DNA of 64,000 nt from an uncultured Candidatus Saccharibacteria bacterium (GCA_964610335.1 CAZSVP010000003.1:13531-77530), one strand, 5' to 3'. Counted from the first letter of the stretch, positions 1,701 through 62,933 are shown. Notes: generated from the letters alone by a model not told the origin. Made by a program: numbers and translations.

Positions 1701-3458
1701 ATGAGTGAAACAGACCCCAAACGAATTGAAATTACCGCCCCCATCCAAGTGAGTGAATTTGCCAAGCTGCTTGATTTAAGCGCTGCCGATGTAGTGGGCG
1801 CGCTTATGCGCAATGGTGTTATGGCCACTATCAATGAAAGTATCGACTACGACACAGCTGCAATTATTGGTGGTGAGCTGGGCTTTGAAATAGCCGAAGC
1901 CCAAGCCGGGCGTGGCGAAACTGTCGAGGCTGTTGACGAGTCGTTGCTCAAACCTCGTCCACCGGTGGTGGCCGTGATGGGCCATGTCGACCATGGCAAG
2001 ACTAGCCTGCTCGATGCTATCCGCAGTAGTAAGGTGGCAGCCGGTGAGGCTGGTGGCATCACTCAACACATTGGTGCTTACCAAGTTGAGCGCAAAGATC
2101 GAATTATTACTTTTCTCGACACTCCTGGTCACGAAGCCTTCTCGGCAATTCGTGCTCATGGCGCCAAGACTGCCGATATTGCAATTATTGTGGTAGCTGC
2201 CGACGACGGTGTGAAGCCCCAGACCAAGGAGGCTATTGAGCACGCCAAAGCCGCCAATGTAAGTATAGTAGTAGCTATTAACAAGATCGATGCCAGTGGT
2301 GCTGATGTCAACCGTGCCAAGCAAGAGCTTAGTGAGATTGGTGTGGTAGCCGATGATTGGGGCGGTGACATTCCAACTGTTGGAGTTTCTGCCAAGACCG
2401 GTGAAGGCATTGAGAACCTACTTGATGTAGTGTTACTGGTTAGTGACATAGCTGAGCCCAAGGCTCGCGTTGAGGGCATGGCACGTGGCGTAGTGATAGA
2501 GTCACATCTTAGTACTGGACAGGGCCCAGTTGCTTCGGCACTTATTCAGGAGGGTACACTCGATGTTGGTGATTGGATCGTACTCGAAGATGGTTACGGC
2601 AAGGTACGCAGTTTGCAAGATTTTCGTGGTAAGCGCATCAAGTCGGCTACACCAGCCACTCCGGTAGTGATATCTGGCCTCAAAGAATTGCCCAACTACG
2701 GTGATTGGATCGAAGAGGTTGAGAGTGAGCGAGCTGCTAAGGATTGGGCTACCAGCCAAGCTCGCAAACAAAGTGCCAAGTCGCTGGTGAATGTAAAGTC
2801 ACTTAGTAGCGCCGACCTAGCTCGAGCCGTTGCTGAGGGTGATCGTAAAGAGCTCAACATCATAGTCAAAGCCGATGCCCAGGGCTCACTCGAGTCGCTA
2901 CAGAGCGCACTAGAACAAATCGGCAACGACAAGGTTGGCGTTAAGATAGTCTCTATTGGGATTGGCGACATTACAGAGAGTGATATCAATGCTGCTACAG
3001 CTAGTGGTGCTATTATAGTTGGCTTCCATGTCAGTATTGCCGCCGCAGTCAATCAGCTGGCCAAACGCGCTGATGTAGAGTTCCGTTTGTACAAGATCAT
3101 CTACGAACTACTAGATGACATTCGCAGCTGGCTACTAAGCCTGTTGCCACCAGAAATAGTTGAGACCGAGATGGCTCGGCTTAAAGTACTTGGTGTATTT
3201 GGAGCGCGCAAGAAAGTCCAAACTGTTGGCGGCCAAGTTGTAAGTGGCAAAATTACTCCTGAGCTAAAGGTAGCCGTAATGCGCGGCAAAGAGCGGGCCG
3301 GTGAAGGCAAGCTACAGAGTCTACAACGCAACAAAGAGGTAGTTAAACAAGTCGCTGAAGGCGATGAGTGTGGAATGCAAATAGAATCCAGTACTACCAT
3401 CGCTATGGATGACGAGCTGATGTTTTACAAGACCGAAGAAAAACCACCGACACTATAG
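1701..3458 (+). CDS. infB: Translation initiation factor IF-2 (short form)
   Basis: GTP-binding motifs [21 protein letters not shown] and NKID, plus an IF-2 C-terminal domain. An AAGGAAA RBS precedes the ATG at 1701; a GTG alternative exists at 1677. Confidence 0.9.
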
Positions 3459-3466
3459 GATAGCTA

Positions 3467-3784
3467 ATGTCACGACTTACCAAACTCAATCTTCAGCTTA
3501 CGCGAGTATTGGCTGAGGCCTTCCAAAACTACCCCGAGCGCGATCCGAAGCTACTAGTCACTGTAGTAGCAGTGGAGGTATCGGCCGATATATCTAGTGC
3601 GCTAGTATGGCTTAGTATGCTTGGTGATCAATCCAAGGTAGATGGCTACCTCAAAAGTCTCGATGCCAACAAGCGCTACTTTGCTGAGTTCTTGCACGAT
3701 CGCTTTGAGGCCAAGCGTCAGCCCAAACTGATATTTCGACAGTCTCAATCACTCGAGAAGCTCCAAGATATAGCTGGTAGCTAG
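3467..3784 (+). CDS. rbfA: Ribosome-binding factor A
   Basis: Translation MSRLTKLNLQLTRVLAEAF...VTVVAVEVSADISSALVW is typical of RbfA. It lies immediately after infB, the conserved gene order. Confidence 0.85.
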   Translation: MSRLTKLNLQLTRVLAEAFQNYPERDPKLLVTVVAVEVSADISSALVWLSMLGDQSKVDGYLKSLDANKRYFAEFLHDRFEAKRQPKLIFRQSQSLEKLQDIAGS

Positions 3785-4195: not shown

Positions 4196-4279
4196 TTGAT
4201 TATTTAATTCAGTAAGCTTGACCAGTTTACAATTATTCTAGTATGATTGTGATAATCAACAAATTCATAGGAGTAAACA

Positions 4280-4879
4280 ATGCCAGCCAAATCCAACGTC
4301 CGTAAGAGTACTAGTAAATCTGGAGGGTTTAAGTTTCGATGGTGGATGGGTTTGGGGTTAGTGCTAGTAATAGCACTTGTTGGATTATTGGTACTTAGGT
4401 TTAGTAAGGCAGGTACTGCTGCTCTAGTCACTTGTGGCAACTACCCTCCAAATATTTCAAATGTTAGCATGCAGTATGTCTACAACAAGGGCACGCCCAA
4501 TACTCAAAATGTTTGTATGATGAAGTCGCCTTATGCATTTTCGCCACTAGGCACTAAGATTACACCAGGCGCAGCTGCTACGTACTGTGTAAAAGGGAGA
4601 TACGTAGGGGATATTAGCTTTACAGCTATAGCTTATACGCCAAACAATACTACGTTCTCATCGCAACCCTCAAACCTAAGTGCGGCTAACTCATATGTAA
4701 GGGGGTTTGGTAACAATTGGATAGCAGACCCTGTGCCAGGTACAGGTGGAGGGGATGTTACGCTGGCCTGTACCAGAGTGCAAACTCCTGATGGAGCAAC
4801 ATCAAGAATTGATTTTGTTTCGCATGGCAATGGGCTAGTTTTTATGCACGCAATAGATGTAGTTGACATCCATAACTAG
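4280..4879 (+). CDS. MPAKSNVR-family membrane-anchored protein, paralog 1
   Basis: N-terminus MPAKSNVRKSTSKSGGFKFRWWMGLGLVLVIALVGLLVLRFS is a basic segment followed by a single TM, conserved with the ORFs at 4973, 5585 and 47430. The C-terminal domain is variable and Cys-containing. Confidence 0.6.
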   Translation: MPAKSNVRKSTSKSGGFKFRWWMGLGLVLVIALVGLLVLRFSKAGTAALVTCGNYPPNISNVSMQYVYNKGTPNTQNVCMMKSPYAFSPLGTKITPGAAATYCVKGRYVGDISFTAIAYTPNNTTFSSQPSNLSAANSYVRGFGNNWIADPVPGTGGGDVTLACTRVQTPDGATSRIDFVSHGNGLVFMHAIDVVDIHN

Positions 4880-4910
4880 TACTTACCTAAGGATAGAAGC
4901 TTTAGTAATC

Positions 4911-4940
4911 TTGACAGGTTTAGTAATGTTCTCGTACTAT
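4911..4940 (+). promoter_or_regulatory. Putative sigma70-like promoter of paralog 2 (TTGACA -35, TACTAT -10)
   Basis: cTTGACAggtttagtaatgttctcgTACTATtagcat, followed by an AAGGAAAA RBS and the ATG at 4973. It is nearly identical to the promoter at 5518. Confidence 0.4.
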
Positions 4941-4972
4941 TAGCATAATAAGTAAAACAAGGAAAACTAAAT

Positions 4973-5449
4973 ATGCCAGCTAAATCAAATGTTCGTAATG
5001 GTGCCAGTAAATCTGGAGGCTTTAAGTTTAAGTGGTGGATGGGTGTTGGGCTCGTAGCTATTATCGCTGTTATTGGAGTGGTGATTGTACGATTTAGCAA
5101 CGCTTCTACTCTAAATCAATATGACCAGAAAATTACTAAGAATAGCAGATACGGTTCACCATTTCCAGAGCCAGTGTATGCTTCAAGCCTTTGTTCTAAT
5201 ACAACCTTTCCAAAATATCTAGATACGTACTCAGCGGGTAGATTTGTATACTGTGGAAGATTTATAGATAATGGTCACATAAGGTGGGCTAGGAATAATG
5301 GTAATAACTCTACTACTTGTGCCGAAATCCAAAGAATTGGGGTTGGACCAAATAAAACAAGGGCATACTTTGTTATTGACGATGAAGACTCAAGTGATCT
5401 AGATACTGGGAAAACAGTTTTAATTGTAGAAAGGCCTTGTTCTGAGTAG
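4973..5449 (+). CDS. MPAKSNVR-family membrane-anchored protein, paralog 2
   Basis: About 70% identical by eye to the ORF at 5585 along its full length, sharing NGHIRW..NG.NS.TCAEIQRIG.GPNKTRAYFVID.E.SSDLDTGKTVL..ERPCSE. Confidence 0.6.
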   Translation: MPAKSNVRNGASKSGGFKFKWWMGVGLVAIIAVIGVVIVRFSNASTLNQYDQKITKNSRYGSPFPEPVYASSLCSNTTFPKYLDTYSAGRFVYCGRFIDNGHIRWARNNGNNSTTCAEIQRIGVGPNKTRAYFVIDDEDSSDLDTGKTVLIVERPCSE

Positions 5450-5469
5450 CGTTTACTGAAAATAACCAT

Positions 5470-5495
5470 TAATGAACGCGCTTGCGTTCATTTTT
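5470..5495 (+). terminator. Rho-independent terminator hairpin (aatgaacgcgcttgcgttcatt followed by a T-run)
   Basis: Perfect inverted repeat followed by TTTTT. It is duplicated, with a changed loop, at 6093. Confidence 0.6.
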
Positions 5496-5517
5496 GATTT
5501 ACTCAAGTTTCGGTAAG

Positions 5518-5549
5518 CTTGACAGGTTTGCTTTTTTTTTTGCTACTAT
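5518..5549 (+). promoter_or_regulatory. Putative promoter of paralog 3 (TTGACA -35, TACTAT -10)
   Basis: gcTTGACAggtttgcttttttttttgcTACTATttg, followed by an AAGGAAAA RBS and the ATG at 5585. Confidence 0.4.
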
Positions 5550-5584
5550 TTGATTAACTAAGTAACAAACAAGGAAAACTTAAT

Positions 5585-6070
5585 ATGCCAGCTAAATCAA
5601 ATGTTCGTAAGGGTGCCAGTAAGCCTGGAGGCTTTAAGTTTAAGTGGTGGATGGGTGTCGGGCTTGTAGCTATTATTGCTATCATTGGAGTGGTGATCGT
5701 ACGATTTAGCAACGCTTCTACAATAAGCCAATATGACCAACAAATTACTAACAATAGCAGAGGAATACCAAGTCCTCAGGATCCAACAGGTATTGGTGCT
5801 TTCCAATGTGGTGGTAGTGGCTTTAACAAATTTGTACAAGGAACGACAGCTGGAAAGTTTTGGTTCTGTGGATATTTTCATGACAACGGCCATATTCGAT
5901 GGGTAAGAGATAATGGAAGTAACTCATTTACATGTGCGGAGATTCAGCGAATCGGACAAGGTCCCAATAAAACTCGTGCCTATTTTGTTATTGATAATGA
6001 GAACTCTAGCGATCTAGATACCGGCAAAACAGTACTATTTATTGAGAGACCTTGCAGCGAAGGGCGATAG
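5585..6070 (+). CDS. MPAKSNVR-family membrane-anchored protein, paralog 3
   Basis: See paralog 2. It is a tandem duplicate that includes the 5' UTR and the terminator. Confidence 0.6.
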   Translation: MPAKSNVRKGASKPGGFKFKWWMGVGLVAIIAIIGVVIVRFSNASTISQYDQQITNNSRGIPSPQDPTGIGAFQCGGSGFNKFVQGTTAGKFWFCGYFHDNGHIRWVRDNGSNSFTCAEIQRIGQGPNKTRAYFVIDNENSSDLDTGKTVLFIERPCSEGR

Positions 6071-6074
6071 TTAA

Positions 6075-6986
6075 TTACTTCAGGTATCCATTAATGAACG
6101 CTTCGGCGTTCATTTTGGTTTTGCCGGCAGGTTGAAGTTCGAGTATCTCGAGGCTACTATCTTCGCAACCAAAATACAGTTTTTTGTCGGCAACAGTTAG
6201 TTTGCCAGCTGGGGTTTTTTGATCTGAAACTGAAGCTCTGTGAATTACAATTCGCAAGTCGTTCATGTCTAGGTAGCTCTTCGGCCAGCCAGCATAAGCG
6301 CATACCTCATACTCTAGCTGGGTTGCAGACTTACTTGGATCAAGATGTCCGTCAGTTTTGGCTATGCGTTTGGTGAAAGTTGGCTCACCAGATTGTGGCG
6401 AGGGCTGCAACTTGTCATTGATTATTGCTGGTAGGGTTTCTACCAATAGATCCGCGCCCATACTACCTAGTTTGTCCACCAATTCTTGTTTGGTTTCGGT
6501 ACCAGAAAGCTTAAGTTCGCGCTGAGCATAGACTGGGCCAGCATCCATCTCGGCTACTAGCTTCATGAGCGACACACCGGTCTTGGTATCGCCTTGCAGT
6601 ATGGTACTCTCGATTGGTGTGGAGCCACGTAGCTGTGGCAACAGTGATGGGTGGATATTGATTATACCCATTGGGAACATATCTAGCACTTGTTGAGGCA
6701 CAATTTGTCCAAAAGCCACCAGTATACCAAGTTCGCTGCGGTGTTTGGCTACCTTGTCTGCCAAGGAGATTTTGTGGCCAGGTAGGATAACTGGTATACC
6801 GTGCTGGTGTGCCAACGTACCTATCTCGAGCTCACGACTCTGGCGTGACACACTGTCGACGTGATTGGCTATCACGGCCTCTATCTCGTAGCCGGCTTTG
6901 ATGAGAGCATTCAATACAGGTACCTTTGTGGTAGTACCAGTAGCAAGCCGTTCATTACCAAAAAAAACTATTTTAGGCTTAGTCAT
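6075..6986 (-). CDS. fmt: Methionyl-tRNA formyltransferase
   Basis: MTKPKIVFFGNERLA... N-terminus and a formyltransferase core (HPSLLPQLRG). It is the last gene of the priA-def-fmt operon. The track ORF extends to 7010. Confidence 0.85.
   Translation of the reverse strand: MTKPKIVFFGNERLATGTTTKVPVLNALIKAGYEIEAVIANHVDSVSRQSRELEIGTLAHQHGIPVILPGHKISLADKVAKHRSELGILVAFGQIVPQQVLDMFPMGIINIHPSLLPQLRGSTPIESTILQGDTKTGVSLMKLVAEMDAGPVYAQRELKLSGTETKQELVDKLGSMGADLLVETLPAIINDKLQPSPQSGEPTFTKRIAKTDGHLDPSKSATQLEYEVCAYAGWPKSYLDMNDLRIVIHRASVSDQKTPAGKLTVADKKLYFGCEDSSLEILELQPAGKTKMNAEAFINGYLK
6093..6118. terminator. Rho-independent terminator (aatgaacgcttcggcgttcatttt), possibly bidirectional for convergent fmt
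   Basis: Inverted repeat with a T-run, sitting between convergent genes. Confidence 0.6.
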
Positions 6987-9594: not shown

Positions 9595-10932
9595 ATGAAA
9601 AAACGAACTATCCAGTTGGTATTGATTGGTGTGGTGATAGTGGTCGCCGCAGCCATTGCTTTGCCACGCGAGGACAAGATACTAAGTGCATTGGGTGTCA
9701 AAAACACTACGCTCAAAGTCCGACAAGGGCTTGATTTGCAGGGTGGAGCCGCCTTGCTCTATCAAGCAGATCTAAGCAAAACGGCCGCTCAAGATCGCGC
9801 TAAGGCTCTTGAGGGTGTCTCCAATGTTATGACCAAGCGTGTTAACCCAACTGGAACGAGTGAAGTGGTAGTACAGACCAGTGGTGGCGATCGTGTCAGT
9901 GTACAATTGCCAGGCGTCAAAGATATCTCTCAGGCCATTGGATTTATAGGTAAGACCGCCGAGCTGCATTTTTATGGTGTCGATGCGAACAATGTGCCCA
10001 CAGAAACAGAAATATCTGGTAAGGACCTCGAAAGTGCCACGGCCGACATCGACACCCAAACTGGCCAGCCGATAATTAGCTTTACTATGAAGCAAGAGTC
10101 GGTACAAAAGTTTGCCGATCTTACCACGCAACTCAACAAAACTGGTGGTCGATTACTAATCTTGCTCGATGAAGAACCACTCTTCAATGGCACAGTAAGC
10201 TCGGCGATTACAGATGGACGTGGTCAGATGCAGGGCTTCAAGGATATCAAAGACGCCCAAGACACGGCAGTACTTCTCAACGCTGGCGCGTTGCCAGTGC
10301 CGGTTCAGCTAGTAGAACAACGGACGGTTGGCGCAACTCTCGGTAGTGAAGTAATCACTAAGAGTATTGTGGCTGGCTTCATTGGCATCATTGCTCTGAT
10401 CTTCTTTATGATCGCCTACTACCGACTGGCAGGCGTGGTGGCCGCTATAGCACTGGGTATATATACACTTATCAACCTAGCGATCTTCAAGGTTAGCGGA
10501 GTTACACCTTTTCCAATTGTACTGACACTGGCGGGTATAGCTGGGTTCATACTCAGTATCGGTATGGCGGTGGATGCCAATATTTTGATATTTGAACGAA
10601 TGAAAGAAGAAGTGCGTGAAGGTAGTGATATGCGCAGTGCACTTGATAGTGGATTTAAGCGTGCCTGGAGTAGTATTCGCGATTCCAACATAGCTACCCT
10701 TATCATCTGTTTTATCCTCTATAACTTCAGCTTTGGTGCCTCGATTGTCAAAGGCTTTGCCGTTACGCTAGCGATTGGTGTGTTGGTAAGTATGTTTACA
10801 GCCATTACGGTCTCGCGTAACCTACTTGAGATAATACTCAAAACCGAGTGGGGAACTGATGATCCTTGGTATGGATTCTTGTCCAAACCAAAAACCAAGA
10901 CCAAGTCGCTCAAGAAGGGTGCTAAGTCATGA
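9595..10932 (+). CDS. secD: Protein-export membrane protein SecD
   Basis: Large periplasmic domain followed by a C-terminal six-TM bundle with the SecD/F signature. It is adjacent to secF. Confidence 0.9.
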   Translation: MKKRTIQLVLIGVVIVVAAAIALPREDKILSALGVKNTTLKVRQGLDLQGGAALLYQADLSKTAAQDRAKALEGVSNVMTKRVNPTGTSEVVVQTSGGDRVSVQLPGVKDISQAIGFIGKTAELHFYGVDANNVPTETEISGKDLESATADIDTQTGQPIISFTMKQESVQKFADLTTQLNKTGGRLLILLDEEPLFNGTVSSAITDGRGQMQGFKDIKDAQDTAVLLNAGALPVPVQLVEQRTVGATLGSEVITKSIVAGFIGIIALIFFMIAYYRLAGVVAAIALGIYTLINLAIFKVSGVTPFPIVLTLAGIAGFILSIGMAVDANILIFERMKEEVREGSDMRSALDSGFKRAWSSIRDSNIATLIICFILYNFSFGASIVKGFAVTLAIGVLVSMFTAITVSRNLLEIILKTEWGTDDPWYGFLSKPKTKTKSLKKGAKS

Positions 10933-11894
10933 AAACATCTCTTAACATCGTTGGTCGACGCAAACTATGGTATCTGATATCGTTGGCAATCATAGTTCCT
11001 GGCACGATCGCCTTGATATTGTGGGGTCTAAAGCCAGGGATTGAGTTTACTGGTGGATCTGAGATTGAGGTTACTGGTGCTACCAACCAATCACAACTGC
11101 AGGCCACGCTCGAAACAGCCGGTGGTCGTGATATAACTATCACTACCAGCGGCGACAGTAACCTGTTGGCACGATATAGTGTTGAGTCAGGCGCAGATGC
11201 TGAGCAGGTACATCAACAGATCAAGGCGCAAATTACGGCGGCCGGCATGACAGAAACCAGTTATAACCAAGTGGGGCCGTCGGTGAGTCGCGATATTACG
11301 CGCAATGCTGGGCTGAGTGTGCTTTTGGCTTCATTGGCCATCATAGCTTACATAGCTTTTGCGTTTCGTAAGACCCCGCCACCTTTGAAATCCTGGAATT
11401 TTGGGGTTGCTGCCATAATCGCTGTTTTGCACGATGCCTTGCTGGTGATTGGTTTATTTGCGATTCTTGGACACTTCTTCGGTGTGCAGGTAGATAGCTT
11501 ATTTGTAACGGCCGTGCTGACCATCATAGGCTTCTCAGTACACGACACGATAGTAGTTTTTGATCGTATCCGTGAGAATCTGCGACGCTACAATGGTAGC
11601 TTTGAGGAGATTGTGGATCGTAGTATTACAGAGACTATGGCACGCTCCATCAATACCTCACTCACTGTGTTGATAGTGTTACTAGCTTTCTTCTTGTTTG
11701 GAGGAGGCAGTATTCACAATTTCATCCTGGCGCTGCTGATAGGTATACTTTCAGGCACATACTCATCGATCTTCAATGCAGCGCCACTACTAGTTAGCTA
11801 CAACAAACATAAGATTAAGAAGGCCGCCAAGGCCAAAGATAAGCCAGATAAGAAAAGTACAAAGAAAGATAAGAAGACAAAATCTAAGAAATAA
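10929..11894 (+). CDS. secF: Protein-export membrane protein SecF
   Basis: SecF TM core (…FDRIREN…) and a Lys-rich C-terminal tail. Its start overlaps the secD stop by 4 bp. Confidence 0.9.
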   Translation: MKTSLNIVGRRKLWYLISLAIIVPGTIALILWGLKPGIEFTGGSEIEVTGATNQSQLQATLETAGGRDITITTSGDSNLLARYSVESGADAEQVHQQIKAQITAAGMTETSYNQVGPSVSRDITRNAGLSVLLASLAIIAYIAFAFRKTPPPLKSWNFGVAAIIAVLHDALLVIGLFAILGHFFGVQVDSLFVTAVLTIIGFSVHDTIVVFDRIRENLRRYNGSFEEIVDRSITETMARSINTSLTVLIVLLAFFLFGGGSIHNFILALLIGILSGTYSSIFNAAPLLVSYNKHKIKKAAKAKDKPDKKSTKKDKKTKSKK

Positions 11895-28842: not shown

Positions 28843-29977
28843 GTCAGCTAGTACTGCAGCCACCAAATCAAGCCACTTGCCGCGTGGTCTTATTGTGGCT
28901 GTGGCTTTTGTGACTATTGTTGGCCTGCTTATTCACTACTCACTGGGGTTACGGGGTGGCACATTTATACTGAGCGATTTCTACCGGCAGTCTATTGCGG
29001 CGGCGATCGGGGCGGTGGTGCTAATACTACTTACCAAACTTGATTACAGGATATTCAAGGACTATGCCAACTTGCTGTACATCATAGCAGTGGCGAGTCT
29101 ACTGCTGGTCGATGTGATCGGTGCGACGCGACTTGGTGCGACACGTTGGATTAGTATTGGATTGCTGCAGATACAACCATCGGAGTTTGCCAAGCTGTTT
29201 AGTATAATTTTCTTTGCGCAGTACATTAGCCAGCATCAGTTTGAGAGTCGATCTTGGAAAGTTCTACTCAAGAGTATTGGGCTGCTGGCAGTACCGGCGT
29301 TGTTGGTTCTGGCACAGCCTGATCTAGGAACTGCCTCGGTGTTTGTGGCTTGCTGGTTGGCAATAGTGTTGGCATCGAAACTACCCAAACTACCATTGGT
29401 TATTGTCTTACTAGTGGGCTTACTGATGCTACCGCTTGGCTACCGCTTCTTGGCGCCTTACCAAAAACAGCGTGTAGATAGTTTTCTATCGGCCCACAAT
29501 GACAAACAAGGCAGCGGCTACAATGTCAAACAGGCTCAGATAGCAATTGGTTCGGGCGGCATGTGGGGTCGGGGGTTGATGGCAGGCTCGCAGAGCGAAG
29601 GTAATTTCTTACCCAGTCATAGCACCGACTTTGTGTTTGCAGTGGTATCAGAAAAACTAGGTTTTCTAGGCTCTAGTTTGTTGGTGCTGGCACTCTACTA
29701 CATTGTGGCGCAGATATTACTGATTGGCTTCCGCGCCGCTGATTGGTTTGGCACTTTGCTGTGTGTTGGTATTGCTACCATGCTGTTTATACACGTCACA
29801 GTCAATGTTGGCATGAATCTTGGCTTGCTGCCAGTAACTGGCATCCCGCTGGCATTTGTATCGTTAGGCGGTAGTAGCCTAATAGTTATGTTGGCAAGTG
29901 TTGGGTTGAGTTTGAGTGTGGCGGCGCGCAGTCACCGCTTGCCGCGTTATCAAGAAGATGATCGGGTGGTGTACTAA
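28796..29977 (+). CDS. ftsW: SEDS family peptidoglycan polymerase (FtsW/RodA)
   Basis: Ten-TM profile with motifs ...GSGYNVKQAQIAIGSGGMWGRG... and ...SHSTDFVFAVVSEKLG.... The true start may be a downstream TTG or GTG, because the track ORF overlaps the ileS end by 47 bp. Confidence 0.8.
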   Translation: MAMSTSLASKSQRLAKSASTAATKSSHLPRGLIVAVAFVTIVGLLIHYSLGLRGGTFILSDFYRQSIAAAIGAVVLILLTKLDYRIFKDYANLLYIIAVASLLLVDVIGATRLGATRWISIGLLQIQPSEFAKLFSIIFFAQYISQHQFESRSWKVLLKSIGLLAVPALLVLAQPDLGTASVFVACWLAIVLASKLPKLPLVIVLLVGLLMLPLGYRFLAPYQKQRVDSFLSAHNDKQGSGYNVKQAQIAIGSGGMWGRGLMAGSQSEGNFLPSHSTDFVFAVVSEKLGFLGSSLLVLALYYIVAQILLIGFRAADWFGTLLCVGIATMLFIHVTVNVGMNLGLLPVTGIPLAFVSLGGSSLIVMLASVGLSLSVAARSHRLPRYQEDDRVVY

Positions 29978-30516
29978 TGCGACACAAGCGTAAGCTACTG
30001 TCACTATTGCCAGTGCTGCTGGTAGTAGGTACCCTGTTGATTTACCGGGGTATTGAACTAAGCAAAGCCCCACCAACTGCTAGCGCTGGTGGTGATGTAC
30101 AACTACAAAAAGCAATCGATGGTGACACTATTGAGGTGGTTGATCATGGTACCAAACATACAGTACGGTTGATAGGTATCAACACGCCTGAGACTGTCGA
30201 TCCTCGCAAGCCAGTGCAGTGCTTTGGCCACGAGGCTAGCCAAAAAACCAAGGAGCTCACAGCTGGCGGTATAGCCCGGCTCGAAGTGGATCCTCTGGTT
30301 GGCGATACCGACAAATATGGCCGCTGGCTGCGTTATGTCTACTTGCCCGATGGCAGTATGCTCAATGCCCGACTTGTGGCCGAAGGCTATGCCTATGAGT
30401 ATACTTACCAAAGTCAGCCCTACACTCACCAAGCCGAGTTCAAAGCCGCTGCCAAAGCTGCGCGTGAACAAGGCCTAGGATTGTGGAGCGATATCACTTG
30501 TGCCGGCAAACTTTAG
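29977..30516 (+). CDS. Secreted thermonuclease (staphylococcal nuclease/SNase-like) with an N-terminal signal or TM
   Basis: DGDTIEV…VRLIGINTPE…GRWLRYVY..DG..LNARLVAEGYA is the SNase fold signature. Confidence 0.8.
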   Translation: MRHKRKLLSLLPVLLVVGTLLIYRGIELSKAPPTASAGGDVQLQKAIDGDTIEVVDHGTKHTVRLIGINTPETVDPRKPVQCFGHEASQKTKELTAGGIARLEVDPLVGDTDKYGRWLRYVYLPDGSMLNARLVAEGYAYEYTYQSQPYTHQAEFKAAAKAAREQGLGLWSDITCAGKL

Positions 30517-31702: not shown

Positions 31703-33045
31703 TGTACTGGACAGATCTATTTCGACGCTCGGGACGCAATCTGCGCAGTGCCAAGGCGCGTACTATATTGACCGCTGCTGCCATAGCAGTTGGGGCTTTT
31801 GCACTGACTTTGACATTGGCTGCCAGCAATGGCGCTCAAGCCTATGTCGGTAAGATTATTGCTGAGAATTTTGATCCAGCCGAGCTGATTGTTACCAATG
31901 ACACGGCAGTTTTTGGGCAGGGTGACAGCACCAAACCGCGCGAATACGATCCTAGCTTTGGTGCTGGCGCGAGTAACTCGGGTGCCGTCACTCAGGTCAA
32001 GAAGATCACCCAGGCCGATGTCGACAAGCTCAAAGCACTCAATGGTGTGGAGTCGGTACGGGAGTATATAAGTGTCAATCTTCAGTATCTAACGCGTGAC
32101 GACCAGAAAAAGTATGTTGCTACAGTGTCGGTATTCAACCCGTCACAAAAACCACAGCTACTGGCTGGTAGTATTCCAAACCCGCTCAATAACAAGCAAG
32201 CGTTGCTGCCGGAGGGCTATGTATCGGCACTTGGCTTTAGCAGCCCACAAGATGCGATCGGCAAAAAGGTAAAGTTGGTAGTAGCTGAGCCGGCAGCAGT
32301 TGCAACTCGCGGACCATTTGGTACCGTGGTGGCGACTTCACCCAAGACTATCGAGCAAGAGTATACTGTAGCGGCAGTACTCAAGAAACCAGTCACGGCT
32401 CAGCCAGGCACCGAGCTATACCTATACATTGGCCTCGATGACGCTCGGGCGCTCAACGATCTTACGACTGCCAATACGGCCGAGTATCGCAAGTACGACG
32501 CTGTCTATGTGAAGGTTTTGGATGGCCAGAACCAGGCTAGTCTGGAGAAGGTACAGGCTGAGATCAAGAAGCTGGGCTATGAGGCTCAGAGTGTCAAAGA
32601 CACCCAAGAGTTTCTCAACCAAATTATTGCGGTGTTGCAAGGCATAGTAGCGGCCTTTGCGTTTATTGCTATCATCGCCTCGGTGTTCGGTATTATCAAC
32701 ACTATGTATATCAGTGTGGTGCAGCGTACCCGTGAGATAGGGCTGATGAAAGCACTGGGTATGCGCAAGCGCGACATTGGCCGGCTTTTCCGCCTCGAAG
32801 CGGCCTGGATTGGCTTACTTGGTGGTTTGATCGGCTCACTACTAGCAATCGGGTTGGGCTTTGCGCTTAACCCTTGGATTACTAAGCAGCTTGATCTGGG
32901 CGACGGCAACTACTTGCTAATATTCAAGCCGATTGAGGTAGTGATCTTGATAATTATACTGATACTAGTATCGATTGTTGCTGGTTGGCTACCATCACGC
33001 AAGGCAGCTCGGCTCGACCCCATCGAGGCACTTAGAACAGAATAA
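31702..33045 (+). CDS. ABC transporter permease, FtsX/MacB family, with a large extracytoplasmic domain
   Basis: TM1, a periplasmic domain of about 250 aa, then an FtsX C-terminal three-TM bundle (…GLMKALGMRKRDI…). Translationally coupled to the ATPase. Confidence 0.85.
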   Translation: MYWTDLFRRSGRNLRSAKARTILTAAAIAVGAFALTLTLAASNGAQAYVGKIIAENFDPAELIVTNDTAVFGQGDSTKPREYDPSFGAGASNSGAVTQVKKITQADVDKLKALNGVESVREYISVNLQYLTRDDQKKYVATVSVFNPSQKPQLLAGSIPNPLNNKQALLPEGYVSALGFSSPQDAIGKKVKLVVAEPAAVATRGPFGTVVATSPKTIEQEYTVAAVLKKPVTAQPGTELYLYIGLDDARALNDLTTANTAEYRKYDAVYVKVLDGQNQASLEKVQAEIKKLGYEAQSVKDTQEFLNQIIAVLQGIVAAFAFIAIIASVFGIINTMYISVVQRTREIGLMKALGMRKRDIGRLFRLEAAWIGLLGGLIGSLLAIGLGFALNPWITKQLDLGDGNYLLIFKPIEVVILIIILILVSIVAGWLPSRKAARLDPIEALRTE

Positions 33046-33117
33046 AAATATCCATGAATGGAAAACGACCCGCAGAAGCGAGATCGTTTCCGTGGGTCGT
33101 ATAGTGCTGATTGATGC

Positions 33118-33486
33118 TCAGCGAGTAGGACTGGCGCGTTGGGCGATGATGCCATCCAGGGCGTCGCACTTGAGATGGGGGAACAGCAGTGGCTCGAGTC
33201 GCTCCAGCTCGCGCAGAAAGCCACTGAGCCGGTATTCGGTCAAGAACTTGGCCGAAGCCACGGGCATGCTCAGCAACAATGTGCTGTAGAGCGGCCGGCG
33301 CACTCGGCCACGGCTGCGAATCATCACCACACTGGCCGCGAAGTGCAACATGTAGGTGCCGGCCATGGCCAGGTCGACTTGCTTGTTGCGGCGGATCCAC
33401 ACGTGAGCCTGTCGCTCCAGTTGGTTCATCTGCTCTCGGTAGTTGGCGCGTCGACGCGCTTCGTCTGACAGGGGAATGGTCACCAC
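33118..33486 (-). CDS. Hypothetical protein in the GC-rich block
   Basis: The 122-aa ORF has protein-like composition (…LSDEARRRANYREQMNQLERQ…). The overlapping ORFs on the other frames look like GC-rich artefacts. Confidence 0.3.
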   Translation of the reverse strand: MVTIPLSDEARRRANYREQMNQLERQAHVWIRRNKQVDLAMAGTYMLHFAASVVMIRSRGRVRRPLYSTLLLSMPVASAKFLTEYRLSGFLRELERLEPLLFPHLKCDALDGIIAQRASPTR

Positions 33487-33554
33487 AGCTCCTGGGTTTT
33501 TGGGGATACAGTAAAGCTGGCATATTATACAATATTGCTACCATACGATCAATA

Positions 33555-34721
33555 CTAAGAGCCAACGATGTAGAGTTCTTGCTCGGCTCGGGTGACTGCC
33601 GTATATAGCCAGCGGCGCCAATCTTGCTCACTCATTTTGGAAAACCGCTCTTCAAACACTAGTACCTTTTGGGCTTGCGAGCCTTGAGCTTTGTGCACTG
33701 TAAGTCCATAGCCGAAGTCAAATAGTCCGACCAAGTCTGCCTTGTCGCGTTTGGGCGCGCGTGACATGGTAGTGGTTTCGCCAAACTGAGCCCGTGGCAC
33801 GTAGCCGTCGAAGCGCAGGCCATCGAAGTTGGCCTGCATATGCCACCATAGCTGATCAATGTCATCGTCGGCCGTAGTGATTGACTCGATCACACCGAGC
33901 TGGCCATTGGCCAAGCCACTTTCGTGATTGTTGCGCAAACACACGATGGTATCACCAGCTTTGGGCTCAGCGCCTTCAAAACCTTTGAGCTGGCGGACAT
34001 GTGCATTGAGTCGCTGGCGCGTGTGATTGTAGCCACACAGCACCATAGTGTCACTAGTGTGGGAGTGCAGTATTGCCTCTACCACATCGCCGGTTTCGCC
34101 ATTACTGCGATCGAGCTTGCGCACACTTGCGGAGTAGTCACCGATTGGGATAATGCCAGATGTGCGAGCCATAGTCGCGAGCTGGATGATAGGGCTATCG
34201 GCCGCTTGACGCCAGATCTTTTCGAGCCGCAGTTCGGGCTCATCCATGAGATTAAATGTAGAGTTGATCGGTGGTAGCTGACCATGGTCACCAACTGCCA
34301 ATATTGGCTTGTCAAAACTCAGAGCGTCGTCCCAGATCTCTTCGTTGACCATACTCGCCTCGTCGATAATTATTAGATCACACTTTAGCTCCTCGCGTTT
34401 TTTGAAGAAGAAGCCACCATCAGCCCGCTCTTGGCGACGGTACATCAGGCTATGTAGGGTACTGACAGTGTCGCTACTTTGCAGTATTTTGGCTTCGCGC
34501 AGCCGATTCTTGAGTACTAGGGCAGCTTTGCCGGTGTAGGCTGCAAAGCCCACTTTCATAGAGGGCTTGTTCTTGTGTAGCACCTGGCGCAGGGCTGCTA
34601 GCAAGGTGGTCTTGCCCGTGCCGGCATAACCACCGAGAGTGATGTACTGTTTGTCGGGATCTTTGAGCCACTGACCTATGGAAGTCAGCGCAGCGGCTTG
34701 ATCGGCGGAATACTTTTGCAT
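33555..34721 (-). CDS. Superfamily-1 DNA helicase of the RecD/Dda/TraA-like type (AAA_30 plus UvrD_C_2)
   Basis: Walker A GYAGTGKTTL, Walker B LIIDEASM, and C-terminal motifs VHKAQGSQ and TAVTRA. At 388 aa it is a small phage- or plasmid-type helicase. Confidence 0.8.
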   Translation of the reverse strand: MQKYSADQAAALTSIGQWLKDPDKQYITLGGYAGTGKTTLLAALRQVLHKNKPSMKVGFAAYTGKAALVLKNRLREAKILQSSDTVSTLHSLMYRRQERADGGFFFKKREELKCDLIIIDEASMVNEEIWDDALSFDKPILAVGDHGQLPPINSTFNLMDEPELRLEKIWRQAADSPIIQLATMARTSGIIPIGDYSASVRKLDRSNGETGDVVEAILHSHTSDTMVLCGYNHTRQRLNAHVRQLKGFEGAEPKAGDTIVCLRNNHESGLANGQLGVIESITTADDDIDQLWWHMQANFDGLRFDGYVPRAQFGETTTMSRAPKRDKADLVGLFDFGYGLTVHKAQGSQAQKVLVFEERFSKMSEQDWRRWLYTAVTRAEQELYIVGS

Positions 34722-34826
34722 AAGACAATTATTGTAGCACGCCAGCTACCAAGCATTGATCTCATGGTTGTGTCGACTTGGCTGGTTTGCTAAAGTGTTC
34801 CGTAATACGCCAGATCGGCGTGAATC

Positions 34827-35546
34827 TTGAGAAAAGGGGGGAGACCCATGAGGCAGCCTGACGATCTCGATGAGCTCGAGATCACCATGCTCGAGGAGCT
34901 GGCAGAGCGTGGCGCCGTTGCGGATAGCGACAATGCTGCCGCTGAGCTGGCATACCGCATTGGCGAGCGGGTCGGCACTGTGGTCAATGGCCGCATTCGT
35001 CGGCTCACCAGACTCCAGCTCGTGGCAGTGACCAATGGTGGTGGTGAGCTGTACAGCGGCATTGCCATCACCAAGGCTGGTTGTCGAGCGGCCCAGATCG
35101 ACTCCCGCTTGGCACGGCGACCACCGGCCCCAACACCGGAGGGATTCAACGCCCATACACCCGTGGTTCGTACCAGGCTTGGCCAGCCACACAGCCTGAC
35201 ACCTGCTAGCAAGCCTGCCGTCCGTGTAACATCGGCGCCAGTGTCGCAGCCAGCGTCAGCACAACCGCGCCAAGCTGCTCAGCCGCGGTCGCGATCCCGC
35301 ATGCATGAGCTCGATCAAGCAGTGTTGCAAGCGCTCGTGAATGGGCCGATCAAGGATCACAACAGTGCCGCCGGCGTGTTGGCGCGCCGACTGGGAGTGG
35401 CGCGCACCAATGGCTTCTCCATGCGACTCAAGGTACTGGCTGATCGTGGCTACATCGATCGCGTGGTAGCCCAAAAGCGCACCTTCAGCATCGCCATCAC
35501 CGAGTCCGGGCGGGCAGCCTTGACCGCTGCTCTGGCGGCGTCGTAG
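34827..35546 (+). CDS. Hypothetical protein with two winged-helix-like repeats and a Pro/Ala/Gln-rich linker
   Basis: Internally repeated segments (…LAYRIGERVGTVVNGRIRRLTRLQLV… and …LARRLGVARTNGFSMRLKVLADRGYI…). High GC. Confidence 0.4.
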   Translation: MRKGGRPMRQPDDLDELEITMLEELAERGAVADSDNAAAELAYRIGERVGTVVNGRIRRLTRLQLVAVTNGGGELYSGIAITKAGCRAAQIDSRLARRPPAPTPEGFNAHTPVVRTRLGQPHSLTPASKPAVRVTSAPVSQPASAQPRQAAQPRSRSRMHELDQAVLQALVNGPIKDHNSAAGVLARRLGVARTNGFSMRLKVLADRGYIDRVVAQKRTFSIAITESGRAALTAALAAS

Positions 35547-35679
35547 CCCAACTGCTCAACTATACCGACCCCTAGCCGAAGACCCTTGGCTGGGGGTCTT
35601 CGTGCTTTTAGGACCAAGTAGTATTGTTGTTTTTGTGCTGCCTCTATCCGAGCACTGCAAAACAACGTAGTATAAGTAT

Positions 35680-36417
35680 ATGAGTGATCCAGAAAATCCA
35701 ATCCAGCCTAAACCCGAGGGTACTCAGTTCTCGCCAGATCTTACGCCGCCAGATGATATTGAAATACTTCGGCAGCGCAATGCTGAGTTGGAAGCCGAAA
35801 ATCAGCTTTTGCGCCAAAAGCTCAAAGCGGCCAACGTCGGATTATTTCATGATCGGCGTCATATCCATGAGCTCGAAGATAAGCTAGAGCACGACGAGCA
35901 GACAGGCCTGGCCAACGAAGCAACTCTTAATACTTGGTTAGAAGCATGTATAGAACAGGGTACTGACAATCTTTGGTTGATAGGAATAGATGTAGACAGG
36001 TTTAAAGATGTTAACGATACTATGGGGCATCCGGCGGCGGATAGGGTGTTGATTGAGGTTGTAGGCAAAGAGCTGCAGTTATTAATTCGGCGCGGAGACA
36101 TTGCCGCTCACTTGCATGGTGACGAGTTTGCAATTGCACTGGCAGGGCCAACGCGCGAGCGAGTAGAAGAGATTGCCAAGGGTTTGCTCGCTACTTCCAA
36201 TAGCCTTGGACTAAGCAAGAATGGCTTTGTAGATATGGATGATCCAGCTCAAGCCGCTCAAGCCATTCGGGTGCAAATGAGCATTGGTGCTGCAGAATGG
36301 CGCCCCGGTATGTCGCTTCAACAGCTACGAGAACAGACCGACCGGGCACTGTATGATGCCAAAGAAGCTGGTCGCAACACTTTTGCTATCCGTTCTGATC
36401 GTCCTACTTCGACATAG
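35680..36417 (+). CDS. GGDEF-domain protein (diguanylate cyclase-like) with an N-terminal coiled coil. The A-site reads HGDEF, and an RxxD I-site is present.
   Basis: GLANEATLNTWLE…LIGIDVDRFKDVND..GH.AADRVL…RRGDIAAHLHGDEFAIAL. RRGD lies five residues before HGDEF, as in PleD (RESD…GGEEF). Confidence 0.8.
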   Translation: MSDPENPIQPKPEGTQFSPDLTPPDDIEILRQRNAELEAENQLLRQKLKAANVGLFHDRRHIHELEDKLEHDEQTGLANEATLNTWLEACIEQGTDNLWLIGIDVDRFKDVNDTMGHPAADRVLIEVVGKELQLLIRRGDIAAHLHGDEFAIALAGPTRERVEEIAKGLLATSNSLGLSKNGFVDMDDPAQAAQAIRVQMSIGAAEWRPGMSLQQLREQTDRALYDAKEAGRNTFAIRSDRPTST

Positions 36418-36446
36418 GTAGACAGTGGATCACAGATCTGGCGCTG

Positions 36447-37637: not shown

Positions 37638-37761
37638 GTATTAAAACGAATTCGAGACCCTAGAATATCTAGAGTCTCATGGGCTGACGAGTCCTATTGC
37701 AGCTCGTCACACCCGCCTCTCAGCTGTTGCTCAACGGTGTGAGCATGGATTTGACCTCCTT

Positions 37762-38076
37762 TTAGCCGGTCAGCGTACTGTCACTAGCTGCCAGCAAGCA
37801 CATGATGGCGTCGGCCAGGCAGGAGAAGCCGAGTTCGAGCGTGGCGCTGAGCTCTGCTCCTGCATGATCGTAGGCCTCGTAGTGCACTTGGTAGCAGACG
37901 TGGCAGTAACTGGCGTGGATGTGGCCGACGTGGGTGCAGCCGTGCTCACTGAGCACTACTACGTCGCGTTGGCCGCCGACAACATTGCTGTGGTGGGCGT
38001 AGATGTCGACTTCGGATGTGATAGTGATAGTCTCGTATAGACTACCTCCTTGTGTGGTGGGTACATTGACAAACAT
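37762..38076 (-). CDS. Hypothetical His/Cys-rich protein
   Basis: ORF only. Confidence 0.25.
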   Translation of the reverse strand: MFVNVPTTQGGSLYETITITSEVDIYAHHSNVVGGQRDVVVLSEHGCTHVGHIHASYCHVCYQVHYEAYDHAGAELSATLELGFSCLADAIMCLLAASDSTLTG

Positions 38077-41521: not shown

Positions 41522-41555
41522 GCGTTTACACAATTAACGATTGGGGTTTAACGTA

Positions 41556-42980: not shown

Positions 42981-42990
42981 TCAAGGCTCG

Positions 42991-45468: not shown

Positions 45469-45519
45469 GTGTTATATAATACAGTAATGTTGAAAGAAGT
45501 TGAAAGTTACTGGTGACCA

Positions 45520-47429: not shown

Positions 47430-49136
47430 ATGGCTGCATCAAGCAAACCAAGATCCAATACCTCAAAAAAACCCACTAAGGGTGCTGGTTTTCAGTTTCG
47501 ATGGTGGATGGTGGCGGTACTAGTAGCCGCAGTAGCAGTTATTGGCATAGTGGTTATACGGTTTAGTCGAGCTGGTATAGACTCGGTGATTCTTAGAAAT
47601 CCCTATGAGGCTCACAACTATGGGGCAGCTGCGTTGCAAGAAGGCAACACACATCACTTCTTCTGGTGTGGTTGGAACACTTACCTCGATGCTGAGGGCA
47701 AGCCACAACAAGAAGAAGTGGTCTATTATCAAAGCCAAAATGGATTTAAAGGGCAGACTACCCAGGCTTATCCTACTATTAGCTCACGCAAAAAAAGTGG
47801 TGGCTGGGAAAACGGCTCTCACATGTGCGACCCCACAATTGTAATAGGTAGGTTTAACTATAAACAGAACACCTATAAGTATGCCTTGTACTACGATAGC
47901 GACCCCGATAACTCATCGAGACGTACCAAGATCGGGGTGGCGTTTACCAACGCTCTTTCTCCGGACCCTAATCATCCTACGCAATGGACGTTTGTAGATC
48001 ATCCAATAGTTTGCGAGTATGGCCCCAACAAGGACTTTTATGGAGTTGGCACTAGTAGCGCTATTGTTGACCCTAAAGATCCAAGTAAGGTGCAATTATT
48101 CTTTGTCGATACCTCTCATACATCTCCCAGCCTGCCCAACGATAAGCGATCTCAGGGCTTTGTGGTGACTGGCACAAATGGCTATGATTTTGGGTGGTCG
48201 GGCAATTGCCAGCTGTCTCCTAGCGCACCAAAGCCTAAAGCCATAAATACCAACAACCTAAATACCACTGCCTATGGCGACTTTAGCTATGACAAACAGA
48301 ACAATTGGTACTATGGTGTAATAGCCGATGGTGGTGCCATCCGCCAACCAATTCGTGGTGAGGGCGACCCACCTCTAGACCAAGGATTCTACTCTGAGTC
48401 TTATCAACAAATAATAGCTCGCATTCGCCCCGAGGCCTTGGTGGACTCTACCAAGGGTGGCTGGCAGATATTGGGTCATTATAACTCCGATTCCACCAAG
48501 AGTGCGCTCAACTTCAACCCGGGAATTTTACGCAATCCAAGTGGGTACTTGGACAACGAGGTAGCACCACTAATCGATGGTGTGCGAGAACTGTATATAT
48601 GGAATACCCAAATAGTACCAACTAACTTGGCCAGTGGCAGCGAAGATGCCAGCAATGATAGTGGTTTGCAAACCAGTGAGATCAGGCATACCAAGATCAA
48701 GCTGTATGTCTGGACTCCGGGGCGAGTACCGTTGGTAAGATACCTCGATACTACGACCGGTGAGCACGCTACTACCGAGAATGTTAAGCCAAAAGCCACC
48801 TACAAGTATGACAATCAGATCTTCTATGTATTGCCAGATCCCAATGGCATGACTGGCTGGCAGCCAATCTACTCGTGTGTTACAAGTGGTCCGTATGATT
48901 ACTTTCTCTCTACTCATGCCAACTGCGATGGGCATTTGCAACTAGGGCTTGTAGGCTATAGCTTTACTGGAGCTAATCCGCCCAACCTACCGGGGCGTTG
49001 GGTAAGACTCTACCGTTGCTGGTCAATAAACGGTAGTGGTGTAGGCGAAAACTTCATGACAAGCAGCCCACAGTGTGAGGGTAATACAAACCCAGTAGAT
49101 GCATCGTACGGCTGGGTATCTCTGGACCAAAAGTAA
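47430..49136 (+). CDS. MPAKSNVR-family paralog 4: the same basic-plus-TM N-terminus fused to a large extracellular domain of about 520 aa
   Basis: N-terminus MAASSKPRSNTSKKPTKGAGFQFRWWMVAVLVAAVAVIGIVVIRFS matches the family N-terminus. The long C-terminal domain has no recognisable catalytic motif. Confidence 0.6.
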   Translation: MAASSKPRSNTSKKPTKGAGFQFRWWMVAVLVAAVAVIGIVVIRFSRAGIDSVILRNPYEAHNYGAAALQEGNTHHFFWCGWNTYLDAEGKPQQEEVVYYQSQNGFKGQTTQAYPTISSRKKSGGWENGSHMCDPTIVIGRFNYKQNTYKYALYYDSDPDNSSRRTKIGVAFTNALSPDPNHPTQWTFVDHPIVCEYGPNKDFYGVGTSSAIVDPKDPSKVQLFFVDTSHTSPSLPNDKRSQGFVVTGTNGYDFGWSGNCQLSPSAPKPKAINTNNLNTTAYGDFSYDKQNNWYYGVIADGGAIRQPIRGEGDPPLDQGFYSESYQQIIARIRPEALVDSTKGGWQILGHYNSDSTKSALNFNPGILRNPSGYLDNEVAPLIDGVRELYIWNTQIVPTNLASGSEDASNDSGLQTSEIRHTKIKLYVWTPGRVPLVRYLDTTTGEHATTENVKPKATYKYDNQIFYVLPDPNGMTGWQPIYSCVTSGPYDYFLSTHANCDGHLQLGLVGYSFTGANPPNLPGRWVRLYRCWSINGSGVGENFMTSSPQCEGNTNPVDASYGWVSLDQK

Positions 49137-49438
49137 TGGCTAACGTTATGAAAAGATATCATGGATTTGTTATGACTAGCTTGAAGTCGTTTGGTAAGTA
49201 CCCATACAGGGCATTTGGTTGGTTTGAGCTCGACGACGATAAGTTGCGCTACTGGCAGTTTATGGGCGAAAAGGGTGAGGTGGTTTACAAAGATATCACT
49301 GGTTTTACGCTACATTGGCAAACGGTGTATCTCAAACAAGCAGGTAAGCAAGAACTATTGGGGTTCGGTAGTACTATCAACAAGAATAAGGTTATAGCAG
49401 ATCTTATTGACCATGGTGTCAAACAGCTGCAGGAGTGA
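49136..49438 (+). CDS. Hypothetical 100-aa protein translationally coupled to paralog 4 (taATGg overlap)
   Basis: The ATG overlaps the stop codon of the previous gene. No motif was found. Confidence 0.45.
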   Translation: MANVMKRYHGFVMTSLKSFGKYPYRAFGWFELDDDKLRYWQFMGEKGEVVYKDITGFTLHWQTVYLKQAGKQELLGFGSTINKNKVIADLIDHGVKQLQE

Positions 49439-49542
49439 GTCAGATCAAGCCAGGTATCCAAATATATGTTGAATAGCTAGCTTGAGCTGCGGCTCCGGGG
49501 TGTAGTGCCCGGAGCCGCTGGCTCTTCGAAGCGGATGCCTCA

Positions 49543-61953: not shown

Positions 61954-61984
61954 ACATTATACCGCCTGGCTTGAGTCTGGCACA

Positions 61985-62851: not shown

Positions 62852-62933
62852 GTAATAAGGCTAATGGCCGAAGTATCATGCCTCAGCCTTCAGTCTAAAA
62901 ACTTAAGACATAATTATTCGGAGGAGAATTATA

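Follow-up and report, generated by a model that had tools for sequence, protein, structure and literature searches.

A conserved N-terminal module on arrayed, unannotated proteins of Saccharibacteria is probably a motif-bearing signal peptide

In a 64-kb stretch of DNA from an uncultured Candidatus Saccharibacteria bacterium (GCA_964610335.1, CAZSVP010000003.1:13531-77530; the whole stretch is called the window here), four plus-strand open reading frames (ORFs), W1 to W4, share a conserved N-terminal module. We propose that this module is a specialised, motif-bearing signal peptide of the Sec type, which tags a subset of surface and secreted proteins and whose gene arrays multiply with gene conversion, and we consider this reading fairly probable. 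The module defines a large, unnamed family solely by its first 45-50 residues. The family is apparently restricted to Saccharibacteria, and public sources that name W1-W4 and their like at all call them 'hypothetical protein'. Like other Patescibacteria, Saccharibacteria live in attachment to bacterial hosts, and few of their many hypothetical proteins have a known role at the surface or on the host. The source organism is a Saccharibacterium, in keeping with the probably epibiotic lifestyle assumed in an earlier note on this DNA: its phylum-named relatives are all metagenome-assembled genomes (MAGs) of Candidatus Saccharibacteria, and the rest are labelled 'bacterium' only.

The module and its family

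The four genes of the window are the following.

4280..4879, plus strand: W1, 199 amino acids (aa); module aa 1-44 (4280-4411, ending ...LRFSKA and followed by G); mature part 155 aa with 4 Cys
4973..5449, plus strand: W2, 158 aa; module aa 1-44 (4973-5104, ending ...VRFSNA and followed by S); mature part 114 aa with 4 Cys
5585..6070, plus strand: W3, a paralog of W2, 161 aa; module aa 1-44 (5585-5716); mature part 117 aa with 4 Cys
47430..49136, plus strand: W4, 568 aa; module aa 1-48 (47430-47573, ending ...IRFSRA and followed by G); mature part 520 aa with 8 Cys

ORF and motif scans recovered these genes and their common N-terminus as the earlier note had described them, and the cysteines of the mature parts bear out its Cys-containing ectodomains. 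All four N-termini read M(P/A)A..SN...K..GF(K/Q)F(R/K)WWM, continue with a 19-residue hydrophobic stretch and end in RFS(K/N/R)A(G/S). A hidden Markov model (HMM) built from 24 N-termini scores W1-W4 at 71-77 bits, against 2 bits for the next-best ORF of the window, and neither this HMM nor a six-frame motif scan found a fifth copy anywhere in the window.

With a profile built from the four copies, an exhaustive HMMER search of 1.84 billion cluster representatives returned 228 clusters at E<=1e-3, of which 87 reach E<=1e-10. All matches are N-terminal, covering residues ~1-83 of the target protein. The similarity therefore exceeds what generic signal-anchor composition would give, and the family-specific export or anchoring tag of the earlier note is upheld; that note had named a lack of significance in a profile search as grounds for refuting it. 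A word-indexed search of a 5.8-billion-protein database with a 50-residue profile had found nothing at E<=0.01; this null result, which the exhaustive search overturned, is explained by the short profile, the huge database and the word filter. When species-representative genomes were scanned for F[KQ]F[RK]WWM, 20 loci were confirmed in ~8 MAGs, at 2-5 loci each; most of these MAGs bear the name Candidatus Saccharibacteria, and two carry just the label 'bacterium'. Across the 1,205 ORFs of the window and these loci, the 24-sequence HMM separates ~45 strong members (57-85 bits) and 7 weaker partial matches (25-32 bits) from all remaining ORFs, which score <=10 bits. A scan of viral contigs did not find the module.

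Pfam and NCBIfam gave only sub-threshold noise on W1-W4. The module is undescribed in both databases and in the searchable literature, which included the literature on the Saccharibacteria secretome and signal peptides, searches with the motif strings and the Southlakia genetics paper. Within the window it marks only a subset of exported proteins, since others have an N-terminal hydrophobic segment without the module: the exported enzymes homologous to SNase (29977-30516) and to a secretory lipase (57057-58520), and an HtrA-like protease (62934 onwards).

The anatomy of the module was derived from 184 distinct N-termini of family members. The n-region comprises ~19 residues and is rich in Lys, Ser and Thr; K, R, S and T dominate positions 4-19, K or R ranks first at eight of these positions, and the net charge is roughly +6 to +9. 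At the boundary between the n-region and the hydrophobic h-region stands F-x-F-[RK]-W-W-M (F20 90%, F22 93%, W24 98%, W25 98%, M26 93%). The hydrophobic core spans 19 residues from W24 to L42, with a Kyte-Doolittle mean of 3.3, and includes conserved V31, V34, A35 (85%) and G38 (99%). The c-region follows with R43 (87%), F or Y at 44, S45 (98%), any residue, A47 (99%) and then S, G or A (94%). Between W24 and A47 the 184 N-termini contain zero indels, and information content collapses two residues past the S-x-A site. Signal peptidase I cleaves according to the established -3/-1 rule, and the module satisfies this rule with a small, uncharged S at -3 and A at -1; its conserved Arg lies at -5 relative to the putative cleavage site.

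On the mechanism that we propose, the basic tail would stay in the cytoplasm, and the positive-inside rule would orient the protein N-in/C-out. The passenger would be exported via SecYEG; SecD and SecF are encoded in the window at 9595-11894. Signal peptidase I would then cut after S-x-A, and the passenger would fold outside the cell with disulfide bonds. By analogy to the YSIRK and KxYKxGKxW signals considered below, FxF[RK]WWM and the conserved core might be recognised by more than the generic machinery, possibly by a dedicated peptidase, an insertase or a localised secretion zone. Tagged genes multiply in same-strand tandem arrays, and their tag-coding 5' ends recombine by gene conversion.

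Passengers of the module

The passengers of 194 collected members have a median length of 124 aa and sort into 68 BLAST clusters, with 32 singletons. An even number of cysteines, mostly 2 or 4, occurs in 96% of the 189 passengers of >=30 residues, a signature of disulfide-bonded extracytoplasmic domains. The majority have no Pfam domain, and the recognisable ones are overwhelmingly cell-envelope enzymes, with PG_binding_1, CHAP, Peptidase_M23, VanY and LdcB-like domains or matches to NCBIfam 'peptidoglycan hydrolase' models. GDSL/SGNH hydrolases and 850-residue subtilases (Peptidase_S8) are further passengers. Cysteine parity and these domains both agree with the extracellular location that the earlier note had given the passengers. 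The tagged proteins plausibly act on cell walls, either the cell's own or the host's. One member recovered by the exhaustive profile search, P0066, carries DUF4185, a family that includes D-arabinan-degrading enzymes acting on mycobacterial arabinogalactan (PMC10115798). This domain hints that some carriers of the module may have hosts of the mycolata type.

The W1 passenger was modelled by AlphaFold (AF2, pLDDT 85) as a beta-sandwich whose first strand begins at mature residue 2, leaving no stalk. Its best matches in the PDB, the carbohydrate-binding modules CBM4, CBM29 and CBM6, amount to a weak likeness (E 5e-4 to 1e-2, TM 0.4-0.5), and no pilin-like structure in the PDB matched it. W2 and W3 form a tiny family together with P0001 and the distant P0161. 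For W4, 9 homologs were found, all with the module and none with a Pfam domain. Its N-terminal ~300 residues were modelled at low confidence (pLDDT 56) as a five-bladed beta-propeller, which is followed by a Cys-containing C-terminal region. The best Foldseek matches of this model are GH43 arabinofuranosidases and arabinanases (E 9e-5, TM 0.5 to target), and W4 contains a motif, HMCDPTIV, which we take to resemble the DP(S/T)I motif of GH43. No sequence-level match to W4 was found in Pfam, and profiles of W4 and of W2/W3 found nothing among PDB sequences. The modelled GH43-like propeller may serve as a lead only. A separate assignment of W4 as a DUF4185 protein was rejected, because hhalign of the W4 family against P0066 aligned the signal module only.

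Being searchable, the tag would mark hundreds of unannotated proteins as exported. It co-occurs with peptidoglycan hydrolases, an enzyme of the D-arabinan-degrading type, glycan-binding-like folds and small disulfide-bonded proteins, and thereby yields a shortlist of candidates for host interaction and cell-wall action. Through the tag, it also becomes possible to test whether an ultra-small, monoderm bacterium has a specialised form of sorting; natural competence is reported for a Saccharibacterium (PMC10633639).

Arrays, gene conversion and expression signals

W1-W3 form an array between a response-regulator gene and fmt, and this array is AT-richer than its surroundings (GC 0.39-0.42 versus 0.48). 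Same-strand tandem arrays are the rule in related genomes, where they comprise 2-5 members (loci L002, L004, L005, L010, L011, L016, L019 and L020) and are inserted between different housekeeping genes. One sub-family, whose mature part starts with IPPEE, has an Lnt-like gene (LNT_N + CN_hydrolase) directly upstream at five loci (L005 672-2915, L010 122-2341, L014 669-2921, L016 1291-2913 and L009 7-1080). Upstream of the Lnt-like gene, L005, L010 and L014 also encode a ~213-aa Big_7 membrane protein, which has only the core part of the module, that is, the transmembrane segment plus LRFSRAS. At L020, the third array copy (3238-3702) has lost most of its hydrophobic core through an internal deletion (...FKFKWWMALLIVFRQSFA...). 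This copy is likely decaying, which points to gene turnover in arrays.

The earlier note had described W2 and W3 as near-identical duplicates. We find instead that they are old paralogs, 71% identical overall in both protein and DNA, in which only the signal-coding 5' part has been homogenised by gene conversion: the first 45 codons are 93% identical, whereas the mature part is at 62% and shows saturation at synonymous sites (proportion of synonymous differences, pS, 0.79). Within the mature domain, the N-terminal half evolves fast (35% identity between the paralogs) and the C-terminal half is conserved (83%). A related organism has the ortholog of W2, P0001, at the corresponding locus (L022). 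In its mature part W2 is nearest to P0001 (77% amino-acid identity; synonymous divergence, dS, 0.76), whereas its signal-coding part is nearest to W3 (dS 0.22, versus 1.15 to P0001). Such disagreement between the two parts is a classic mark of intragenomic gene conversion affecting the 5' module. P0001, too, has a mosaic 5' end, in which some segments are W1-like and others W3-like.

For the signal region, comparison of W2/W3 with P0001 gives a dS of 1.15-1.32 and a proportion of nonsynonymous differences (pN) of 0.14-0.15. Saturated synonymous sites combined with little amino-acid change argue for purifying selection on the peptide. Identity of the h- and c-regions is 63% within genomes and 59% between genomes. 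The diversifying selection suggested by the earlier note found no support in the computed ratios: nonsynonymous to synonymous divergence (dN/dS) exceeded 1 in no pairwise comparison where dS was measurable, and the fast-evolving half of the mature domain gave a dN of 0.31 and a dS of 1.19 between W2 and its ortholog. No internal tandem repeats were found in the mature parts. The contig of L022 ends at 4997, right after P0001, that of L023 ends 163 bp after W1, and an exact look-up of W2 and W3 in a contig index yielded no contig. Assemblies probably break at the repeated 5' module, given that short-read contigs stop directly behind a module gene, and arrays are likely under-represented in MAGs.

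Candidate expression signals of the W1-W3 array and two ORFs adjoining module genes are as follows.

4218..4247, plus strand: promoter-like site of W1, TTGACC-18-TATGAT, inside the box AAGCTTGACnnGTTT
4911..4940, plus strand: promoter-like site of W2, TTGACA-18-TACTAT
4959-4966, plus strand: ribosome-binding site of W2, AAGGAAAA
5471..5492, plus strand: hairpin, terminator candidate of W2; 9-bp stem, 4-nt loop, then a T-run
5519..5549, plus strand: promoter-like site of W3, TTGACA-19-TACTAT
5571-5578, plus strand: ribosome-binding site of W3, AAGGAAAA
6075-7010, minus strand: fmt (Pfam Formyl_trans_N/C), convergent to W3
6093..6114, plus strand: hairpin, terminator candidate of W3; 9-bp stem, then a T-run
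49136..49438, plus strand: 100-aa ORF, its start overlapping the W4 stop (ATGA)

The box AAGCTTGACnnGTTT is common to W1, W2 and W3. Promoter-like sites, ribosome-binding sites and hairpins are present as the earlier note had claimed, and the origin of the hairpins has to be revised. The hairpin at 6093-6114 (-14.8 kcal/mol, z = -4.5) lies within the last codons of fmt (...KMNAEAFINGYLK and the stop), and that at 5471-5492 (-14.1 kcal/mol, z = -5.6) is a relic left by duplication of the fmt 3' end, in which the reverse strand reads KMNASAFING; no shuffled sequence folds as well as either. The duplicated unit therefore ran from the promoter into the 3' end of fmt. Both stems are identical, the loops differ, and the sequence around the relic has diverged. 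The survival of intact stems in diverged surroundings suggests selection on the hairpin itself, for which the simplest role would be that of a terminator. Independent transcription units, as the earlier note proposed for each copy, are plausible for W2 and W3, which have separate promoters and the selected hairpin; W1 has no terminator-like site before W2. The promoter spacer of W3 contains a T10 tract (5532-5541), which makes it 19 nt long, and the related strain at L022 has T9 at about 4425-4433 and a spacer of 18 nt. This tract could act as a slipped-strand expression switch. A homopolymer tract is absent upstream of the other ~45 members examined, and the idea of phase variation did not generalise.

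Downstream of W4, the 100-aa ORF at 49136-49438 lacks both a signal and a Pfam match and probably shares its transcript with W4; the same pairing is present in L001. A GC-rich hairpin with a 16-bp stem lies at ~49484-49523, downstream of this ORF. Elsewhere in the window, whose mean GC is 0.48, we observed a GC-rich block at 33000-38000 (0.54-0.59) containing genes without obvious function, and an AT-rich block at 41000-46000 (0.37-0.43) that includes a gene for a type I restriction enzyme, HsdR-like (42991-45468, minus strand). Rfam and tRNA scans found no tRNA, tmRNA or Rfam family at threshold anywhere in the 64 kb. The segment at 61090-63998 is syntenic with L002 1-2419, up to the HtrA-like gene. 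Two module genes directly follow that gene in L002, so further members may lie just past the window edge.

Competing readings and known systems

Cleavage by signal peptidase I most probably occurs after S-x-A. The position of S-x-A at the exact end of conservation, the lack of a stalk in the W1 model and the shortness of some passengers (38-55 residues) favour a cleaved signal peptide. The transmembrane segment that the earlier note took for a membrane anchor is retained here as a hydrophobic core, and the invariant S-x-A suggests that it belongs to a cleaved signal instead. Several points weigh against this reading. The very hydrophobic core, at 19 residues and a Kyte-Doolittle mean of 3.3, could also serve as a permanent anchor, conservation of the h-region (G38 at 99%, fixed length) is far above that of ordinary cleaved Sec signals, and a basic residue on the outer side, R43 at 87%, is unusual. 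The conserved Big_7 membrane protein has only the h- and c-region part, behind a tail of ~65 residues, and is more anchor-like. The fold assignments of W1 and W4 are weak, with a pLDDT of 56 for W4 and Foldseek TM-scores of 0.3-0.5 for both. A host role is read from the lifestyle and the kinds of enzyme, which might just as well remodel the cell's own wall, cleavage at S-x-A is read from sequence, and the library behind the 228 clusters carries no organism names.

The conserved, strongly hydrophobic core of fixed length and the outer-side arginine make an uncleaved signal-anchor of type II topology a serious competitor; it would hold the ectodomains on the surface, and its conserved transmembrane face (W24 W25, A35xxG38, R43) would pack against a common membrane partner or other family members. 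Conservation of A35, V31 and V34, alongside that of G38, is likewise atypical of cleaved Sec signals, the long tail of the Big_7 protein would be cytoplasmic, and retention at the surface would suit the adhesins of an epibiont. We nevertheless consider a signal-anchor possible but doubtful: conservation ends exactly at the S of -3 (98%) and the A of -1 (99%), no linker separates the site from the W1 fold, which begins two residues past it, and passengers of 38-55 residues fit released peptides better than tethered domains. Other classes of signal were tried and rejected. A Tat signal would need a twin arginine, as in S/T-R-R-x-F-L-K, which [KQ]-F-[RK]-W-W-M does not contain, and would not have so hydrophobic an h-region; no TAT_signal model matched. 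For a lipoprotein signal (signal peptidase II), the +1 residue is S, G or A in 94% and no Cys was seen there. A type IV pilin or class III signal is contradicted by a G before F20 in only 40%, the absence of a core Glu and the lack of an N_methyl match. A rhomboid substrate motif would fit the Phe at P4 and the Ala at P1, but, judged by reasoning only, an N-in protein does not suit the bacterial rhomboids known so far.

Two further explanations fare worse than a signal-anchor. The conserved 5' segment might matter at the level of DNA, as a recombination cassette that shuffles promoters and variable genes in the manner of mycoplasma variable-surface-protein loci, with the protein function limited to generic export. 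Gene conversion of the W2/W3 5' module, the mosaic 5' end of P0001, the breaking of assemblies within arrays and the T10 tract of W3 against T9 in its relative would all fit such a cassette. However, key residues are conserved at 98-99% across genomes, identity of the h- and c-regions is nearly as high between genomes as within them, and the saturated dS with low pN between orthologous lineages indicates purifying selection on the peptide; promoters of other members also lack homopolymer tracts, and mature parts lack internal tandem repeats. The contrast between synonymous and nonsynonymous change has largely refuted this explanation already, and we give it almost no chance. Nor do we find it at all likely that the proteins are filament subunits that, like the products of pilin gene clusters, use the shared N-terminal segment for assembly and decorate the fibre with variable C-terminal domains. 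Same-strand arrays, a common hydrophobic N-terminus, Cys-paired C-terminal domains and the beta-sandwich model of W1 would fit a pilus, and operons for Pam pili exist in Saccharibacteria (bioRxiv 10.64898/2026.03.03.709456). Against it stand the absence of a class III (G/FxxxE) signal and of any N_methyl match in Pfam or NCBIfam, the >=68 unrelated passenger groups, which include CHAP, M23, VanY, S8 and GDSL enzymes, arrays without a chaperone-like or usher-like neighbour, and a W1 model without a pilin-like match in the PDB.

A bolder extension of the signal-peptide reading is that the module is the address label of a dedicated Saccharibacteria sorting route, read by a specific partner and delivering a fast-evolving arsenal to the interface between epibiont and host. 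We regard this extension as rather unlikely. Candidates for the partner would be a signal peptidase specialised for the purpose, a paralog of YidC or Sec, or a secretion zone at the pole or the site of host contact, and the arsenal would consist of cell-wall hydrolases, glycan binders and small disulfide-rich proteins. If it were true, the tag would offer a sequence-only way of listing the effectors of an epibiotic lifestyle.

As a motif-bearing signal peptide, the module would resemble those of monoderm bacteria; it is a member of none of these groups and does not represent a new principle. Its closest counterparts include the YSIRK-G/S signals (PF04650, TIGR01168), which are likewise long, of the Sec type and marked by a conserved motif at the junction of the n- and h-regions, and which likewise occur on many unrelated surface proteins of one lineage, where they mark part of the secretome. 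The YSIRK motif targets its proteins for secretion at the division septum. The two differ in motif (YSIRKxxxGxxS versus FxF[RK]WWM), and in the module, unlike YSIRK, the whole h- and c-region is conserved at fixed length, the lineage is Saccharibacteria and the passengers have, as far as seen, no LPXTG sorting signal. W1-W4 and 150 family representatives gave no match to PF04650 or TIGR01168 in Pfam and NCBIfam. The KxYKxGKxW signal (TIGR03715) is also an extended, basic, motif-bearing N-terminal signal for a class of surface proteins, and it shares with the module a motif of Lys, Gly and aromatic residues, including Trp, just before the hydrophobic core. Signals of this type are found on Gram-positive glycoprotein adhesins exported by the accessory Sec system. 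NCBIfam gave no TIGR03715 match, no accessory SecA2/SecY2 genes were seen next to module arrays, and the passengers are small Cys-paired domains and enzymes, in contrast to the serine-rich repeat glycoproteins of KxYKxGKxW.

Generic Sec signals cut by signal peptidase I have the same tripartite n-h-c layout and satisfy the same -3/-1 rule, and the other exported proteins of the window have ordinary, non-conserved versions of them. The module differs in its length of 45-50 residues, in conservation position by position across >180 N-termini and in the Arg at -5. At the level of gene organisation, the loci resemble the Vsp, Vlp and Vsa families of variable surface lipoproteins in mycoplasmas, with tandem arrays, a highly conserved promoter, 5' and signal region, divergent mature parts and recombination between copies; a homopolymer in the promoter spacer, likewise a feature of those families, occurs here in one case, W3. 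Unlike the mycoplasma proteins, module proteins have no lipobox Cys and no internal repeats, and their conservation is enforced at the protein level across genomes. No site-specific recombinase was found next to module arrays.

The nearest comparison by lineage is with the Pam pili of Saccharibacteria, whose operons encode components that all have an N-terminal signal; these are Ig-like pilins assembled by donor-strand exchange, together with membrane-anchored chaperones (bioRxiv 10.64898/2026.03.03.709456). An FxF[RK]WWM-type motif is not mentioned in that paper, and the module arrays differ from Pam operons in that neither a chaperone-like neighbour nor a two-domain pilin architecture was found in them. 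Both are systems of the same phylum in which adjacent genes encode beta-rich extracellular proteins with Sec signals, which act in the case of Pam, and may act in that of the module, at the host interface.

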